This document shows positions 5,504-11,948 of a stretch of 64,000 bases of DNA, piece after piece. The stretch covers positions 8,471-72,470 of the forward strand of contig JANQTF010000300.1 of assembly GCA_030731845.1 (NCBI GenBank). Direction: 5' to 3'. The notes beneath the pieces are model-generated. The model had not been told where the DNA came from and ran no database searches. It was given only the letters and a program-made list of their open reading frames with translations. Source of the DNA: Bacteroidia bacterium. GTDB lineage: Bacteria > Bacteroidota > Bacteroidia > J057. Position numbers and translations under genes: made by a program. Numbering within the stretch: the first letter of the stretch is position 1; every line of letters begins with the position of its first letter.

Positions 5504-6583
5504 ATGGAGTTGACCCTGATTCGCCGCTGTGCCCTTCTGGTTTTACCTATGCTGCTCGTAGCATGTCGCCCTGATCCTGTTACGCCGGATCTTTATGAGG
5601 TGCCCGCCATCATTCAGCCCTATGTGGATGCATTTGAGATGGAAGCTGCCAAGCGCGGCATTGAACTCGATATTTCCAACCTTCAGGTGGAGTTTACCAC
5701 CGACCTCGACGACGGCAAAGGCAATGAAGCCGCCGGACTCTGTCACTTCCAAAGTGCCAGCAATCCTACACCCCGCATCGAGCTCGACACCACGTCTTTC
5801 AACTGGCAAAACAACCTCTACCACCGCGAGATCCTCGTCTTCCACGAGTTGGGCCACTGCATCCTCAATCGCCTGCATCGCGACAATGAGCTTCCCAATG
5901 GCAACATAGCCTCCATCATGCGTAGCACCGGAGAGCAGGTCTATGGAGGCATTCTTAACGGCTTCAAGCGCGATTATTATATCGACGAATTATTCGACGA
6001 AAACACCCCTGCACCAGATTGGGCCACCAATCAGCCAGCCTATAATTCTGCGAGCTATGGCGCAAACATCTTTATCGATGAATTTGTGGATAACCGCAAT
6101 AGCTGGCCTTTGGGCAACAGCACCAACAGCCGTACGGCCATTCAAGGCGGCGATTTTATTTTTGAATCGAAGTCTGAGACAAGCGCATTTTTCCTCACCA
6201 AAAATGTGCTCATCGACACCGACAAAGATTTCGAAATCGAAGCACGCATTAAACTCGCGAGTGGGGAGCGTCCGGCCTTACTCCAATGGGGTGGCAACGA
6301 CGGCAGCGATTTGTACTTCTTCGGATTTTCTCGTGACAGCTCAATTCTAGCAGGCAATTGGCAGGAAGGTCTTGTGCTAGGCCAGCAAAGTCCACGCGTG
6401 AAAGCAGATGATTACAATGTACTCACCATCCGAAAAACCGGAACCTTCTACCACATCTATCTCAACGGTGAGTATCAGGAAATTTTTGAATTTGAGCCAT
6501 TCTTTGGCAACAAGATCGCTTTCTACATCGGGCAGCAATCTACCATGCAGGTAGATTATCTCCGAATCAGAGAGCTGTTGTAG
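5504..6583 (+). CDS. Putative zinc-metalloprotease lipoprotein with C-terminal jelly-roll/lectin-like domain
   Basis: Lipoprotein signal (LPMLLVAC). HExxH motif in ILVFHELGHCILNRLH. The C-terminal ~170 aa are beta-rich (FEIEARIKL...YNVLTIRKTGTFYHIYLNG). Family not identified. Confidence 0.55.
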   Translation: MELTLIRRCALLVLPMLLVACRPDPVTPDLYEVPAIIQPYVDAFEMEAAKRGIELDISNLQVEFTTDLDDGKGNEAAGLCHFQSASNPTPRIELDTTSFNWQNNLYHREILVFHELGHCILNRLHRDNELPNGNIASIMRSTGEQVYGGILNGFKRDYYIDELFDENTPAPDWATNQPAYNSASYGANIFIDEFVDNRNSWPLGNSTNSRTAIQGGDFIFESKSETSAFFLTKNVLIDTDKDFEIEARIKLASGERPALLQWGGNDGSDLYFFGFSRDSSILAGNWQEGLVLGQQSPRVKADDYNVLTIRKTGTFYHIYLNGEYQEIFEFEPFFGNKIAFYIGQQSTMQVDYLRIRELL

Positions 6584-6586
6584 GGC

Positions 6587-7051
6587 TCAATCCCAGACAC
6601 ATTCGCACAAGACACGCCGCTTTTCGATGGGGAGCGGTGGTGGTAAGGGAGCTTCGTAGCCACGCGAGATGTCTTTATATTCTTCGCGGATAAATCGCTT
6701 CCGCTTGATGCCAAACTCTTGCTCCATGTAGGCCACCATATATGACAAGCGCTCTTCCAAGAGAAGGCGAGACGCCACATCATCTGGACCGGGTGGCACA
6801 TCGGGCATGAGCTTCACCTCCATTCGCTTGTATTTTTTCATCAAATAAGCGAGGTAGCGCAGCTCCTGTTCATAGCCAGATTCGAGCTGCATCGTGCCCG
6901 ACACAAAGTAAATAATCGGCAATTCGCAGGACCGGCTATCCGGGGTACGCTTCACACCAAAAATTTCTGGAATTCCCTGACCATACGTATTGGTTGTGGG
7001 ACTCGCACAAAGGGGCAGTGCGATCAGGAGGATTTTGAGCAAGGGGATCAT
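6587..7051 (-). CDS. Hypothetical secreted protein
   Basis: 154-aa ORF with signal peptide MIPLLKILLIALPLCASP. No recognisable domain. Divergent from the Mks-like operon. Confidence 0.5.
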   Translation of the reverse strand: MIPLLKILLIALPLCASPTTNTYGQGIPEIFGVKRTPDSRSCELPIIYFVSGTMQLESGYEQELRYLAYLMKKYKRMEVKLMPDVPPGPDDVASRLLLEERLSYMVAYMEQEFGIKRKRFIREEYKDISRGYEAPLPPPLPIEKRRVLCECVWD

Positions 7052-7227
7052 GTTCCTGTAGGCGTTTGGGGGTAATCAAACGAGTGCCGGGGGTATCGGC
7101 ATCACGAGATAAACGAATATCGAAAACCTTTTGGTATGAAAACAGCCCCACAATCAATAGAAGTGCATGATGAAGAATAAATGTAGAAAAAAGTGATCAA
7201 AAATGCTATTTATATTAGCAAAACCAT

Positions 7228-7235
7228 TATTTTTG
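7228..7235 (+). promoter_or_regulatory. Candidate Bacteroidota -7 promoter box (TAnnTTTG) for the Mks-like operon
   Basis: TATTTTTG at 7228-7235, 16 nt upstream of ATG 7251. The match to the TAnnTTTG consensus was made by eye only. Confidence 0.3.
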
Positions 7236-7250: not shown

Positions 7251-7808
7251 ATGCGTATTCCTCCCCAAACATCGGATATCTTCACTTTCCTCAGCAAGGG
7301 CCATTTCATTAGCCTCAATAGCAAAGACCCCATGCAGACGCACCTCTACGAGGTCATCAGCAGCCATGAGGGCTCCTTGAGAGATTACTTCGCCGTCATC
7401 GACCTTCATCTCCATCGCGGCAATGGCTACTATTATTTTTCTCGGCCAGAACGGGGCGAGAGCCTGGAAGAGCGCATGGAAAAAGTCATGCGTCAACTCG
7501 ACCTGCTCAGCTTTTTGCTTGCCTACAACCCTCGATTTGGTCCAGGCCTCGGTTTTAGCGCAAAAGAAGTATGGGAACAATGCCAACGAAAACCCGATCT
7601 CATGAAGCGCCTCGACAAGCTGAGCCTCCGCCCTGCAGGGGCATCCTCCGAAGAAAAACTTCGTCAGGTTCTTCGCCTCCTAGAAAAAGACACCTTCCTC
7701 GAAGCTGATACCGATGGCCACTACCGTGTCCTTTCGGCATTCGATTACCTTCTACAACTCATCGACCGAATTGAACTCAGATATGATCAGCAATACAGCC
7801 TATCCTGA
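7251..7808 (+). CDS. MukE/MksE/JetB-like (DUF4194-like) tandem winged-helix protein
   Basis: 185 aa from ATG 7251 (the track ORF begins at 7203; that alternative start is possible). The block FLSKGHFISL...LRDYFAVIDLHLHRGNGYYYFSRPE and a second wHTH-like half (LRQVLRLLEKDTFLEADTDGHYRVLSAF) resemble the MksE/JetB family as I recall it. The gene overlaps the downstream SMC-like gene by 26 nt. Confidence 0.5.
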   Translation: MRIPPQTSDIFTFLSKGHFISLNSKDPMQTHLYEVISSHEGSLRDYFAVIDLHLHRGNGYYYFSRPERGESLEERMEKVMRQLDLLSFLLAYNPRFGPGLGFSAKEVWEQCQRKPDLMKRLDKLSLRPAGASSEEKLRQVLRLLEKDTFLEADTDGHYRVLSAFDYLLQLIDRIELRYDQQYSLS

Positions 7809-10665
7809 ATCTGCCTCAATCCCCTTGAAACTACTTAGCGCCACGCTCTTAGGGTTTGGTGCTCCGGTTACCTACGACCTCGATGATTCCCTCTTTCTCT
7901 CTGGCCCGGCAGGACAGGGCAAGGAGAAGTTACTCGCCCTCCTCACTCATTGGTATCTTCCTCAATCAGAGCCCTTCCTCGACACAGAAGACCAGACTCC
8001 TTATCTCCTATATCAATGGAGCAAAGCAGGGAAGGCTCTCTGCTCTGTGCATAGCGTAGCCAAAGGAGAATGCGTGGCTTTCCTCATCGAAGGCAGCATC
8101 GAATCGAGCTGGGGGAAAGGGGAAATCCTTCCGCCTCTTGCCGAGTGGATAGAGGCTTTGCAGGCAGAGGGGCGGCGCACGAGTCCCATCATGTGGGGCG
8201 AGCAGGAGTGGCTGTCATGGCTCAATGGAAGCAGCGCCACAAAACCCAAACGCAATACGCCTGAGTTCCTTCTTTCTCCGCACATTCATCCCCACATCTT
8301 GCAGGCACTCAGATATCGGCCCGAACCTACTCCCTTTGCCTGGCAAGCCTATTTGTCTGCTACTGTCAGAAGGCAAATAGACCTGGGAGAAGATGTGCAT
8401 AAACGTTTGTTAGCCTATCGACAACACAGGGTCGAGCTCCTCCGTGACGAAGAAGCAGCCATCTCCTTGCCACAGCTCAGGCAGTGGCAGAGCACCGCCA
8501 AAAGCCTTCATCAAGAGAAGGCATTCTTAATGTCTCAGTGCCCAGCCATTTACCAACAACATCTCCAGGAAGGCGAAATAGCCCGGCAAAATCATCAGGC
8601 TCAGAAAGCTCTTCTCCCCCTTCACGAAAAACTCGACAGCCTCTCCCTCAGACTGGGTTGGCTGGAGTGGCAGATCCAGGAGTCACAAGCCGGGACCGAT
8701 CAGCCAACAGGAGCGGGATCAGAGCCAGCCCTGTGGTGGCAGGCCCGCAAGCTCATCGAAGCGGAGCTTCGCAGCGCCCAGGCAGCACAGCTCAAAACGC
8801 TTCATCTGCTATCTCAGCCCTTTGATGATGCGGCATCTGAAGAGGAATCGAGCATCATTTTCCGGGTGAGGCAATTGGAAAAAGAATTGCCGGGAAAATT
8901 CGCTGCCTTGGAAAAATCACGCCTCCAACTCGATTGGATCCGAAAGGAAAAAGAAGCGGAGGCAGCAAGAATAGAGGCAACTCAACAGAAAGAACACTCA
9001 AGCCTAAAAGAGCTAAAAGAAGAATTAGAGGCAAAATTAAAAGACTTGACCGCCGAGGCCCGCCGGCCTCAAAACACGCTGCGCCATTGGCTGGACAAGA
9101 ATTACCCAGACTGGAAGCAAGGACCGGGAAAAGTCCTCGCGCCTGAATTGCTAGCTAGCCGAGGCATGTTTCCCAGTATTGATCGAATCAACGACCTCTT
9201 CTTTGGTGTTCGGCTCAATCTTGATGACCTCCCTGAGCCCGAGGCCATGTCTGCGGATCTGTTACCAGACCTCGAGGAGCAAGTGGCAGAGACCCAGAAG
9301 CTATTGTCAGAGTTTCAGATCCGGTGTCAGCATGAAGAAAAATTGCTACAGGCACGGTATCGACAGCGCACCCGCCCTGTGCAGAAAGACATACAGCAAG
9401 CAGAATATGAGCTGCAACAACATGAGCGCGAGCTCGGCCAACTACGGCAGCGCCACAAAGACCTTCGCCACCATCGGCGACAAACATGGGAACAAACCCG
9501 ATTCCTCTTGCAATATGATCTTAACTCACAGGACAAAGAGCTTGCAGCACTTCAGGAGCAACTCCACGATCTCGATCTGCAATGGCAAGCCTGGCTCAAT
9601 CAGGAGAATCCTACCTTGCTTTCCAGCGCCAAGCTTAGTTCTCTTCTTAGTAGCTGGAAAAAAGAGAAAAAGCAGTTGTTGACCGCATTGGCCGAGGCTG
9701 AAAAAGCGCAAGAACTAGCGCGCGTGCATGCCAGCGAGGTACTTGACCGCTGGCAACACCATGATCAGCTCCTGGAGAGCTGGATCAAGGCCAAGGTAAT
9801 GCCCCGCCCAGCCCCGCAATCGACGGCTGTCTCAGCGCTTGATACTGCAACCTGGATCAAGCGGTTTCGTCTGTGGGAATTGGAATCTGCTGCATCTAGG
9901 CGGGAAGGAGAAGCCTGGCAGGGGCGATTTCCATGGCTCGCCATATTTGATTCGGAAGAGGAAGACCCCCTTGAATCCCTCGAATCAGCGGCCATCGCGG
10001 CCCGCAAAGCAACGCTAGCCCAGGCATGGTTTCCCCAGCTCAAGGTCATCGCAGCAGAATCCCATGCCATCCTGAGCTTGGCACAAGACATAGAGCGACA
10101 CTGGCAAGCCTGGGCAAAGTTGTGGGAGCAGATTGCCCAGAATAGTCCATGGAAGTCATTTGCTCCTTCATTTTCTGTAATGAACACATCGATGATTCGA
10201 GCACTCGAGGCCATTCGCGACCTTTGTCACAACCATCAGCATGCCGTGGCAGGTCCCAGCCTTTTCAACCATCAGGATCCACAACAAACTCTGGTTCAAA
10301 CCCTTCATTTGCTCGATAATCTCTGGGAAGCAAACCAACATTGGCAACACCAGGCCATGAGCCTCGATCTGCCTGGAGCCGGGGCACATGGACTTTCGAC
10401 CCCAAACACCGAAACTTCAGCCATCAATATTGCCTATCACACTAGCTACTTGATGACCATGGGCCACTCCCTGCCCGGGCCAGTGATGCTTGCAGCAGCA
10501 GATGAAATGCCCATCGATGTAGTTTCGGAAATCTCCTCCTTCGCTGCCTGCCTGCTTAGCTCACAGTGGCCCCTTCCTGTTTCGGGGCGGCACTTTTGGG
10601 TCACAAATACAGACAAAGAGAAGACATGGGAGGCATTGCCGTTCGCGATCGGCAATGAGGGATAA
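7783..10665 (+). CDS. SMC/JetC/MksB-like coiled-coil protein with degenerate ABC-ATPase head
   Basis: N-terminal head block IPLKLLSATLLGFGAPVTYDLDDSLFLSGPAGQGKEKLLALL (Walker A is GxxGxGK followed by E, not S/T). Two long Q/E/L/R-rich coiled-coil stretches flank a non-helical hinge-like segment (DWKQGPGKVLAPELLASRGMFPSIDRINDLFFGVRLNL, near 9.1-9.25 kb). The C-terminal head has LSTPNTETSAINIAY in the signature position and VMLAAADEMPIDV as Walker B. Start taken at ATG 7783 (M24 of the track ORF). Confidence 0.6.
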   Translation: MISNTAYPESASIPLKLLSATLLGFGAPVTYDLDDSLFLSGPAGQGKEKLLALLTHWYLPQSEPFLDTEDQTPYLLYQWSKAGKALCSVHSVAKGECVAFLIEGSIESSWGKGEILPPLAEWIEALQAEGRRTSPIMWGEQEWLSWLNGSSATKPKRNTPEFLLSPHIHPHILQALRYRPEPTPFAWQAYLSATVRRQIDLGEDVHKRLLAYRQHRVELLRDEEAAISLPQLRQWQSTAKSLHQEKAFLMSQCPAIYQQHLQEGEIARQNHQAQKALLPLHEKLDSLSLRLGWLEWQIQESQAGTDQPTGAGSEPALWWQARKLIEAELRSAQAAQLKTLHLLSQPFDDAASEEESSIIFRVRQLEKELPGKFAALEKSRLQLDWIRKEKEAEAARIEATQQKEHSSLKELKEELEAKLKDLTAEARRPQNTLRHWLDKNYPDWKQGPGKVLAPELLASRGMFPSIDRINDLFFGVRLNLDDLPEPEAMSADLLPDLEEQVAETQKLLSEFQIRCQHEEKLLQARYRQRTRPVQKDIQQAEYELQQHERELGQLRQRHKDLRHHRRQTWEQTRFLLQYDLNSQDKELAALQEQLHDLDLQWQAWLNQENPTLLSSAKLSSLLSSWKKEKKQLLTALAEAEKAQELARVHASEVLDRWQHHDQLLESWIKAKVMPRPAPQSTAVSALDTATWIKRFRLWELESAASRREGEAWQGRFPWLAIFDSEEEDPLESLESAAIAARKATLAQAWFPQLKVIAAESHAILSLAQDIERHWQAWAKLWEQIAQNSPWKSFAPSFSVMNTSMIRALEAIRDLCHNHQHAVAGPSLFNHQDPQQTLVQTLHLLDNLWEANQHWQHQAMSLDLPGAGAHGLSTPNTETSAINIAYHTSYLMTMGHSLPGPVMLAAADEMPIDVVSEISSFAACLLSSQWPLPVSGRHFWVTNTDKEKTWEALPFAIGNEG

Positions 10666-10721: not shown

Positions 10722-11948
10722 ATGGCATCCGGTATCCGCATTTGGTGGCGAAAACAACAGTTGTCAAGAACCCTTGGCAGCTGCGACGAAGCTGGCTTGA
10801 TCAGGGCAGTAGAAATAGGGAATGCCGCGGCGATTTCCTCCCTGTTGGAGTTGGGAGTTTCGGCAGATGCGAGGGATGAAAAAGGTCGTCCGGCTCTGTG
10901 TGTAGCCGTGCGTCAGGGCGACACTGTAACCACTGCTCATTTGCTGAAACTTGGAGCTAATCTGGCCCTCACTGATCAGGAAGGCAGGACGGCCATCATG
11001 GAAGCGGTCATTCACGGCGATAAATATCTCCTTCAGCATTTGCTGGAGTACCATCCTGATATTAACAAGCGCAATGCACTTGGGGAAACAGCCCTGCTGA
11101 TCGCAGTGAAAGAGGGAAATACAACGCTGGGACGGATGCTTCTATCCGCTGGGGCAGAGGCAGATCTGGCCGACCGCAACGGAATCACGCCCCTGATGGC
11201 GGCGGTAGAAGACGCAAAAGTGGCCCTCGTGAAAAGCTTGCTCGAAGCAGGCGCCAATCCCGAGCAGCGAGATCTGGCCGGGCGAAATACCCTCGACAGA
11301 CCGAGTCTGTCTCCCCGCATTCAGAAAATGCTGCAAGAAGCAAGCAGCCCCTCGCCAGGTAAGTCGGCTGGCACGGAGCCCATGCTGCCAGACCTCTTAC
11401 ATCGATGGCTTGGCTCGGCTACCCAATTACTGGGAACCGAACATGCTGCCCTCGATGTCACAAACAAAGGGCAAGAACTCATCCAATTATTAGGAAGCAC
11501 ATTTAGGCTAACAGACCTGGAGCGCTCCGAGGAATGGCTCCAAGGCGGAGCCGGGATGCTCGTGCTGCTTATGCAGGAGGTGCAGCGAGGACTCAGCCAA
11601 CTTTCGCTTTCGACAAAAGAAGAAGAAGCCGCCGAAAGCTGGAAAAAGCTCGAACAATTGGTGCGGGGCATGGCCTCAGGGCTCACAGCACCTCAGGCAA
11701 ATATTTCATCGGGGCCTGAGCAGCACATTCACTTTCACCTTCCACCGATCAATCCGGAGGGCGCCCTGCCACCCGACAAAGCCCTGAATGAAGCAATCAC
11801 TTCAGGTGCAGCGCGTGCCGCCAGGATCCTTTCCGAGATGCGTACGGGAGAATCCACCGGAGAGCTCAGCATTCACCTCAATGAAGAAGAATCGCCCGTG
11901 ATCCTGAAGCCCTCAGCCGAAGATCCGCATTCCCCCTCTCAGGCATAA
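10722..11948 (+). CDS. Cytoplasmic ankyrin-repeat protein with uncharacterised C-terminal half
   Basis: About five consecutive ANK repeats (GRPALCVAVRQGDTVTTAHLLKLGANLALTDQEGRTAIMEAVIHGD...GETALLIAVKEGN...GITPLMAAVED...LLEAGANPEQRD). No signal peptide. I cannot assign residues ~200-408 to a family. Confidence 0.85.
   Translation: MASGIRIWWRKQQLSRTLGSCDEAGLIRAVEIGNAAAISSLLELGVSADARDEKGRPALCVAVRQGDTVTTAHLLKLGANLALTDQEGRTAIMEAVIHGDKYLLQHLLEYHPDINKRNALGETALLIAVKEGNTTLGRMLLSAGAEADLADRNGITPLMAAVEDAKVALVKSLLEAGANPEQRDLAGRNTLDRPSLSPRIQKMLQEASSPSPGKSAGTEPMLPDLLHRWLGSATQLLGTEHAALDVTNKGQELIQLLGSTFRLTDLERSEEWLQGGAGMLVLLMQEVQRGLSQLSLSTKEEEAAESWKKLEQLVRGMASGLTAPQANISSGPEQHIHFHLPPINPEGALPPDKALNEAITSGAARAARILSEMRTGESTGELSIHLNEEESPVILKPSAEDPHSPSQA

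Follow-up and report, generated by a model that had tools for sequence, protein, structure and literature searches.

Can a protein of the structural maintenance of chromosomes (SMC) type stay in service once the motifs of its ATPase head have gone? The question is raised by a gene at positions 7783-10665 of the forward strand of a 64,000-nucleotide stretch of DNA (hereafter the window) from contig JANQTF010000300.1 of a Bacteroidia bacterium, the product of which had been described in an initial annotation as an SMC-like protein with a partly degenerate ATPase head. To our knowledge, every characterized SMC complex (Smc-ScpAB, MukBEF, MksBEF, Wadjet, cohesin, condensin, Smc5/6, and Rad50) needs ATP binding, head engagement, and ATP hydrolysis, and the ATPase of MukB is required for MukB function. 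In the enzymology of SMC and ABC proteins, the Walker B glutamate is the catalytic base, the Ser/Thr of Walker A ligates Mg2+, and the Ser-x-Gly of the signature motif touches the ATP held by the opposite head. Here we find that 7783-10665 encodes an SMC protein of the MukB/MksB type that is full-length and descends from the DUF3584 branch of MksB, and we propose it as a candidate for an SMC complex operating without the customary ATP motor.

Results

The SMC-like gene encodes a full-length protein of the MukB/MksB type

The open reading frame (ORF) on the plus strand spans 7714-10665 and translates into 983 amino acids, but alignment with orthologues and the public gene call both favor the second methionine, at 7783, as the start, giving a protein of 960 residues. 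We modeled this protein with AlphaFold2 (AF2) on an alignment of 12 orthologues, obtaining a mean predicted local distance difference test (pLDDT) score of 78.8. In the model, residues 15-180 and 800-955 contain the strands and helices of a head, residues 184-427 and 493-800 form long helices, and residues 428-492 make up a nonhelical hinge. These are the ABC-type head formed from both termini, the long coiled coil, and the central hinge of the SMC superfamily, with arms of ~250-300 residues each. The hinge-like insert that had been placed near 9.08-9.25 kb between two helical arms is thus borne out, as the nonhelical segment corresponds to about nt 9064-9258. In the alignment, the hinge (aa 427-492, 9061-9258) carries the motif RRPxNTxRHW...GPGK...SRGMFP...RINDLFFG and is followed by a helix (aa 517-545, 9331-9417) with the pattern HEEKLLxxRYxQxxRPxQKxIQQAEYxLQ, a run of invariant columns from H517 to Q545. 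The C-terminal strands (aa 935-955, 10585-10647; GxHxWVT...WEALPFA), predicted by AF2 at residues 936-943 and 948-954, contain invariant G935, H937, W939, and A951-F954.

When the model was compared with known structures using Foldseek, the best match was MukB (E 6e-14), followed by JetC (E 1.5e-11), with further matches to Smc5/6, condensin, and Rad50. Sequence searches were far less sensitive. Pfam returned DUF3584 (PF12128) at 37 bits against a cutoff of 31, spanning only residues 402-684 of the 983-residue translation, i.e. the hinge and adjoining arms, which is the sole region that single-sequence and Pfam searches matched to DUF3584 relatives. A search of PDB sequences with the SMC-like protein gave coiled-coil noise only (e.g. 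apolipoprotein A-I) and no MukB match, the NCBIfam scan gave no match, and a Pfam SMC_N scan of the genome recovered Smc (1190 aa) and missed the SMC-like gene. Full-length kinship emerged from profile-profile comparison with hhalign, in which a profile of 21 canonical DUF3584-type MksB proteins matched the SMC-like protein over 915 columns with a probability of 100 and an E-value of 5e-46.

The ATPase motifs are degenerate at their homologous sites

The Walker A site is occupied by the P-loop GPAGQGKE (aa 41-48, 7903-7926), in which Glu replaces the Mg-binding Ser/Thr after the lysine. In the hhalign comparison, it aligns to the Walker A GxxGxGKS/T of the canonical relatives, and GLSTPNTE aligns to their signature gSxGtd. 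The signature remnant LSTPN (aa 871-875, 10393-10407), with AINIAY downstream of it at residues 880-885, was placed at the same position by hhalign, by an L-INS-i alignment, and by anchoring to MukB. For the anchoring, the profile of canonical C-terminal heads matched MukB residues 1252-1462 (E 8e-6), with gSeGtd opposite the MukB LSTGE and hcllDEvgklD opposite the MukB LFLDEAARLD. A deposited hydrolysis-deficient MukB variant reads LDQ at the Walker B position and serves as an internal control of this alignment. From these alignments, we conclude that GPAGQGKE and LSTPN occupy the genuine motif positions and do not resemble the motifs by accident. Both had been noted in the initial annotation; its view of the protein as SMC-like accords with the MukB and JetC fold matches, and its suggestion that the head is partly degenerate accords with the positions of these motifs.

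The assignment of Walker B requires revision. The stretch VMLAAADE (aa 901-908, 10483-10506) had been regarded as a retained Walker B, but hhalign and an independent L-INS-i alignment of ~80 relatives both place the canonical Asp-Glu columns at A904-A905, and the D907-E908 pair lies three residues downstream of them. Furthermore, as described below, E908 occurs in the window strain alone.

To determine how widely these substitutions are shared, we searched 5.8 billion proteins with a word index and 1.84 billion representatives exhaustively with a profile. The first search yielded 12 orthologue clusters at 31-40% identity; the second yielded seven family representatives, after which the E-values leapt from 1e-293 to 1e-29. 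In GTDB terms, every member of the full-length family, hereafter the GKE family, falls in the genus of uncultured Bacteroidia from which the window comes, and all of the family's genomes are metagenome assemblies. The pattern GxxGxGKE, which departs from the Walker A consensus GxxxxGK[ST], is present without exception in the 10 orthologues that have an N terminus. The signature Ser-x-Gly is absent from 12 of 12, the aligned columns reading TxN, HxE, ExH, QxH, SxR, or SxH, so that even the Ser is not conserved. Where canonical proteins have the Asp-Glu of Walker B, the orthologues read AA, TL, PE, PS, DG, NG, or PD, with no conserved catalytic Glu. At D907, 11 of the 12 orthologues have an acidic residue; the E908 column reads E/H/K/K/R/N/Q/G/Q/A/G/F. 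The initial annotation had named two findings that would count against it, canonical Walker A or signature motifs lying elsewhere in the protein and orthologues with canonical motifs, the latter indicating a strain-specific decaying gene; neither was found, and the degeneracy is a property of the whole family.

One orthologue (L015:5125-7979, equivalent to L042 and located on contig C81 of G030) is broken into ORFs of 164 and 825 residues in different frames, either by a real frameshift or by an assembly error.

The SMC-like gene is under purifying selection but diverges rapidly

For two fairly close orthologue pairs, we obtained a dN/dS of ~0.10, an approximate value because dS is near saturation; pN/pS was 0.15-0.36 per head half and 0.11-0.16 in the hinge. 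We therefore conclude that the SMC-like gene is not decaying. Mean pairwise identity is highest in the strand-loop-helix of the P-loop (64%), followed by the hinge (61%), the post-hinge helix (58%), and the C-terminal strands (57%); it is 29-36% in the arms and lowest (28%) in the stretch from the signature to Walker B. This distribution indicates that the P-loop has been held by selection and that the parts of the head concerned with engagement and catalysis have been released from it.

In two pairs of loci (L050/L013 and L051/L014), the flanking proteins are 96-99% identical, and the SMC-like protein is 70-75% identical. Divergence at 4-fold degenerate sites in the same pairs is 0.55-0.57 in the SMC-like gene versus 0.22-0.42 in the flanks, and relative to its immediate neighbors the SMC-like gene shows a two- to fourfold higher 4-fold-site divergence and a dN that is more than 10 times higher. 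The hot spot is limited to the SMC-like gene; in the one partial comparison available for the ankyrin-repeat gene downstream of it (see below), dN was raised and 4-fold divergence was flank-like. Possible causes are recombinational exchange of alleles, balancing or diversifying selection, and a weaker constraint on codon usage. Across the genus, identity is 34-40% for the SMC-like protein, 42-49% for the ankyrin-repeat protein, and 60-78% for the neighboring genes.

The SMC-like gene forms a conserved trio with mksE and an ankyrin-repeat gene

Directly upstream lies a gene (7251-7808, plus strand) for an MksE-like KITE subunit (Pfam MksE PF21980, E 1.4e-32), the 3' end of which overlaps the SMC-like gene by 26 nt. 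Its ORF opens at 7203, and the orthologues, which are 60-69% identical, begin at M17, i.e. at 7251. The gene is present in a single copy in the genome and adjoins the SMC-like gene in every orthologous locus that reaches far enough upstream, as is characteristic of the KITE subunit of MksBEF. Downstream, 56 nt past the SMC-like stop codon, is a gene (10722-11948, plus strand) for a 408-residue protein with ankyrin repeats (Pfam Ank_2, E 9e-25). The repeats extend to about residues 190-210 and are followed by a C-terminal region of ~200 residues that could not be assigned to any family. Within this region, the motif PEQHIHFHLPP (11715-11747) is near-invariant, with Q334, H335, H337, H339, and P341 invariant. 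The trio of MksE, SMC-like, and ankyrin-repeat genes was found in every locus that could be read past the SMC-like gene, including one with otherwise unrelated flanks. The C-terminal region of the ankyrin-repeat protein is restricted to this architecture (10 clusters), and its distribution matches that of the GKE family.

The cassette contains no kleisin gene, and the genome has no DUF3375 protein. In related genera, the gene order is candidate MksF, MksE, and MksB, and in four such loci the gene directly upstream of mksE-mksB is homologous (hhalign probability 95, E 3e-8, 298 columns) to an unlinked gene of 356 codons in the genome of the window strain. This gene, P0134, lies at ~38.1-39.2 kb of contig C75 of G000 (L049:6136-7206, minus strand), with a small unannotated ORF on one side and an mgtE-like gene on the other. 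Among genomes of the family, a homologue of P0134 is present in 25 of the 26 with an MksB-like gene and in 5 of the 25 without (Fisher p 1e-8, with no correction for phylogeny); of these five, three are assemblies with a completeness of at most 87%. We regard P0134 as a candidate MksF-like third subunit and consider the label "kleisin-less" unjustified. We also considered, and dropped, the idea that kleisin loss tracks decay of the head: L034, which has a canonical head, has no third gene next to it either (an epimerase is encoded upstream), the upstream ORF in L036, the locus of a P-loop-less protein, encodes an APP1 phosphatase and not MksF, and an unlinked candidate is present in almost all of these genomes. 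The genome encodes a canonical Smc and no other MksB, so there is no backup copy of the SMC-like gene.

Related lineages show graded loss of the ATPase motifs

Other genera of the same bacterial family encode MksB-like proteins of 1000-1215 residues next to an MksE gene. We sorted ~80 relatives by their motif columns into four stages. Stage i (n = 37) is fully canonical, with K[ST], SxG, and DE. In stage ii (n = 11), Walker A is kept, and the residue after the Walker B Asp is Q, D, N, or H, or the Asp itself is missing; the signature is kept in some of these proteins, and two of them are natural D-Q variants, matching the EQ mutation made in the laboratory. Stage iii (n = 10) is the GKE family of the window genus, and stage iv (n = 23) has no P-loop. 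In a maximum likelihood tree, stages ii-iv form one group of 44 rows, including all 11 stage ii proteins, with a support of 93 in the Shimodaira-Hasegawa-like approximate likelihood ratio test, and the GKE family is a clade with 100% support. Judged from these motif columns, there is a clear order of decay in which the catalytic Glu was lost first, then the signature, and then the P-loop. The unconstrained tree nested the GKE family among the P-loop-less lineages, a placement that we do not adopt because the approximately unbiased test does not reject a tree with all P-loop-less proteins in a single clade (p = 0.21). Some stage ii and stage iv relatives belong to near-complete genomes of 3-5 contigs, which may be those of cultured isolates and hence amenable to work at the bench. 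We note that the loci L028:6370-9939 and L029:6579-10034 and their relatives encode proteins with a canonical Walker A and a Walker B reading D-Q, D-D, D-N, or D-H, the L028 protein being a natural D-Q variant.

Discussion

Having lost the catalytic Glu of Walker B, the signature, and the Ser/Thr of Walker A, the SMC-like protein should be unable to run the canonical cycle of engagement and hydrolysis. Our best reading, to which we give a probability of about 0.6, is that it is a hydrolysis-incompetent scaffold derived from an SMC protein, perhaps one that still binds a ligand at its P-loop. Such a protein, dimerized through its hinge, would act as a nonmotor scaffold or tether, presumably in a DNA-related role, and its heads would dock the MksE dimer, the MksF-like candidate, and the ankyrin-repeat protein. 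The conserved P-loop would probably bind nucleotide or phosphate as a structural or allosteric cofactor or switch and not as fuel. In the lineage, the ATPase would have been dismantled stepwise, with the P-loop surviving as GKE in the window genus and disappearing in neighboring lineages.

Several observations weigh against this reading. The P-loop is strictly conserved and must therefore still do something, and the Glu after its Lys could in principle ligate Mg2+ and, together with the acid in the 907 column, make up a noncanonical active site. The SMC-like gene evolves much faster than its neighbors, which could mean relaxed constraint or conflict. With respect to the partners, AF2 models the ankyrin repeats with pLDDT above 90 and the C-terminal region of the same protein with pLDDT below 50, and P0134 displayed no similarity to MukF, JetA, or ScpA in comparisons with Pfam, PDB, and PADLOC, or when a profile of 18 candidates was compared with PDB and Pfam; its putative identity as a kleisin is argued from gene position and co-occurrence.

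The first of these points leads to a rewired but active ATPase, in which E48 would serve as Mg2+ ligand or catalytic base and the acid at 907 would take the place of the Walker B Asp, perhaps in a slow, switch-type SMC. The invariance of GxxGxGKE within the best-conserved segment of the protein, the acidic 907 column, and a head fold predicted by AF2 with fair confidence would all fit such an enzyme. We nonetheless consider it unlikely, as the signature Ser-x-Gly that is needed for engagement around sandwiched ATP is found in no orthologue, the residue after the conserved acid is variable, and the stretch from the signature to Walker B is the least constrained of the protein. Moreover, sister lineages without a P-loop keep a full-length protein and MksE, which implies that the lineage as a whole does not need ATP. 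The rapid divergence, in turn, would be expected of a conflict or defense system derived from something like Wadjet, in which an ATPase-dead SMC acts as a sensor or scaffold for an effector and the SMC-like and ankyrin-repeat proteins evolve quickly through recognition or targeting of invaders. Both the hot spot amid nearly identical flanks and the low identity of the two proteins across the genus are in keeping with this, and the ankyrin repeats match the PADLOC candidate model PDC-M72A. However, that match covers generic ankyrin repeats only, the cassette contains no nuclease or other effector gene, and PADLOC detected no JetA, JetC, or JetD and returned JetB alone (E 0.011). In most orthologous loci, the cassette also sits at the same, syntenic place in the chromosome, among housekeeping-type neighbors and with no signs of mobile elements, and a role in defense therefore seems improbable to us.

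A further alternative takes its cue from the Caenorhabditis elegans protein SMCL-1, which negatively regulates condensins (PMC5373644): the SMC-like protein might be a regulatory paralogue with a "poison" head that damps the canonical Smc-ScpAB, and the genome does encode a 1190-residue Smc on which it could act. We think this very doubtful, given that SMCL-1 lacks hinge and coils whereas the SMC-like protein keeps both, along with a KITE partner of its own, and that heads of the MukB/MksB type are so far from Smc heads that Pfam SMC_N does not see the SMC-like protein. Finally, degenerate catalytic motifs, the lack of an mksF in the operon, fast protein evolution, and the frameshift-split L015 orthologue in one metagenome-assembled genome are what one would expect if the gene were a nonfunctional remnant of an MksBEF operon that is being lost. 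This is scarcely credible for a gene that has intact ORFs of 929-968 codons in 10 lineages at only 31-40% identity, a dN/dS of ~0.1 in all regions, dozens of invariant residues (16 Trp and those of the P-loop and hinge among them), and a conserved translational coupling with mksE.

If the scaffold reading is extended from the GKE family to its relatives, a whole Bacteroidia lineage of MukB/MksB-type SMC complexes would have given up ATP hydrolysis and stayed functional as passive or ligand-gated tethers instead of loop-extruding motors. The four stages would then record the passage from motor to scaffold, and the ankyrin-repeat protein with its disordered tail would have been recruited as a subunit that binds the heads or a cargo. 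We offer this larger proposal tentatively, as less likely than not. If it is true, then the SMC architecture has a useful activity that is independent of ATP, such as bridging, tethering, or scaffolding, and the lineage provides natural separation-of-function variants, including Walker B D-Q proteins that are equal to the laboratory EQ mutants.

Among known systems, DUF3584-type MksBEF is exemplified by the Shewanella trio Sama_0592-0594, described as encoding an "smc-like chromosome partitioning protein" (bioRxiv 10.1101/072470). In Shewanella, the phenotype linked to the DUF3584 protein was sensitivity to cisplatin. The window protein shares with the DUF3584 type of MksBEF its architecture, homology over 915 columns, an MksE gene directly upstream, and the hinge motif WLExxYPxW..GK...L.P...R.N.LFFGI. 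It differs in being ~200 residues shorter, in the Glu of Walker A, and in the loss of the signature and the catalytic Glu; in addition, the candidate mksF is unlinked, and the cassette has gained an ankyrin-repeat gene, specific to the genus, on its downstream side. Pseudomonas aeruginosa MksBEF is another MksBEF condensin. Escherichia coli MukBEF (9gm6, 7nyw) provides the best structural match, and the LSTPN of the window protein can be recognized as what is left of an LSTGE-like motif, but the hinge of the window protein is much smaller, and the ATPase of MukB is canonical. Wadjet (JetABCD, also MksBEFG or EptABCD) resembles the cassette in the JetC fold, in the pairing of a KITE with an SMC protein, and in having a fourth gene after the SMC gene; in the window, however, that position is taken by the ankyrin-repeat gene, the Toprim nuclease JetD/MksG and PADLOC matches to JetA and JetC are missing, and the chromosomal site is fixed.

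Precedents for a dead head are few. In heterodimeric ABC transporters (e.g. TAP1 and nucleotide-binding domain 1 of CFTR), the degenerate site binds ATP without hydrolyzing it, and the second, consensus site is active. Like the degenerate sites of these transporters, the window protein has a degenerate signature and no Glu at the position that follows the Walker B Asp, but a homodimer of MksB would be left with two dead sites. Among published SMC-family proteins that are naturally unable to hydrolyze ATP, the nearest precedent is SMCL-1, which is predicted to bind and not to hydrolyze ATP (PMC5373644). SMCL-1 has a canonical Walker A, has no hinge or coiled coil, and acts on other SMC proteins, whereas the window protein has arms, a hinge, its own KITE partner, and a noncanonical Walker A. 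Our literature searches for MksE together with ankyrin returned no relevant paper, and those for an SMC-like pseudo-ATPase returned none; searches for MukB-like or SMC-like proteins together with Walker B or the catalytic glutamate gave no bacterial precedent, SMCL-1 being the sole relevant match.

Other features of the locus

The N terminus of the ankyrin-repeat protein (10722-10790) is a conserved, strongly basic, Trp-containing helix with the pattern MASxLxTWWKKxxLxRKAGGC, and a near-invariant Cys comes before the repeats. On the other side of the cassette, Bacteroidota promoters have the -7 consensus TAnnTTTG, and the sequence TATTTTTG at 7228-7235, 16 nt upstream of the mksE ATG at 7251, fits it; this suggests that the mksE leader would be very short. 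Further upstream of mksE are a gene (5504-6583, plus strand) for a predicted lipoprotein of 359 residues with an HELGH metalloprotease-like motif and an ORF of 154 codons (6587-7051, minus strand) with no Pfam match. The lipoprotein, which is 75-78% identical across the genus, is far better conserved than the SMC-like gene, and both upstream genes are syntenic in most orthologous loci.

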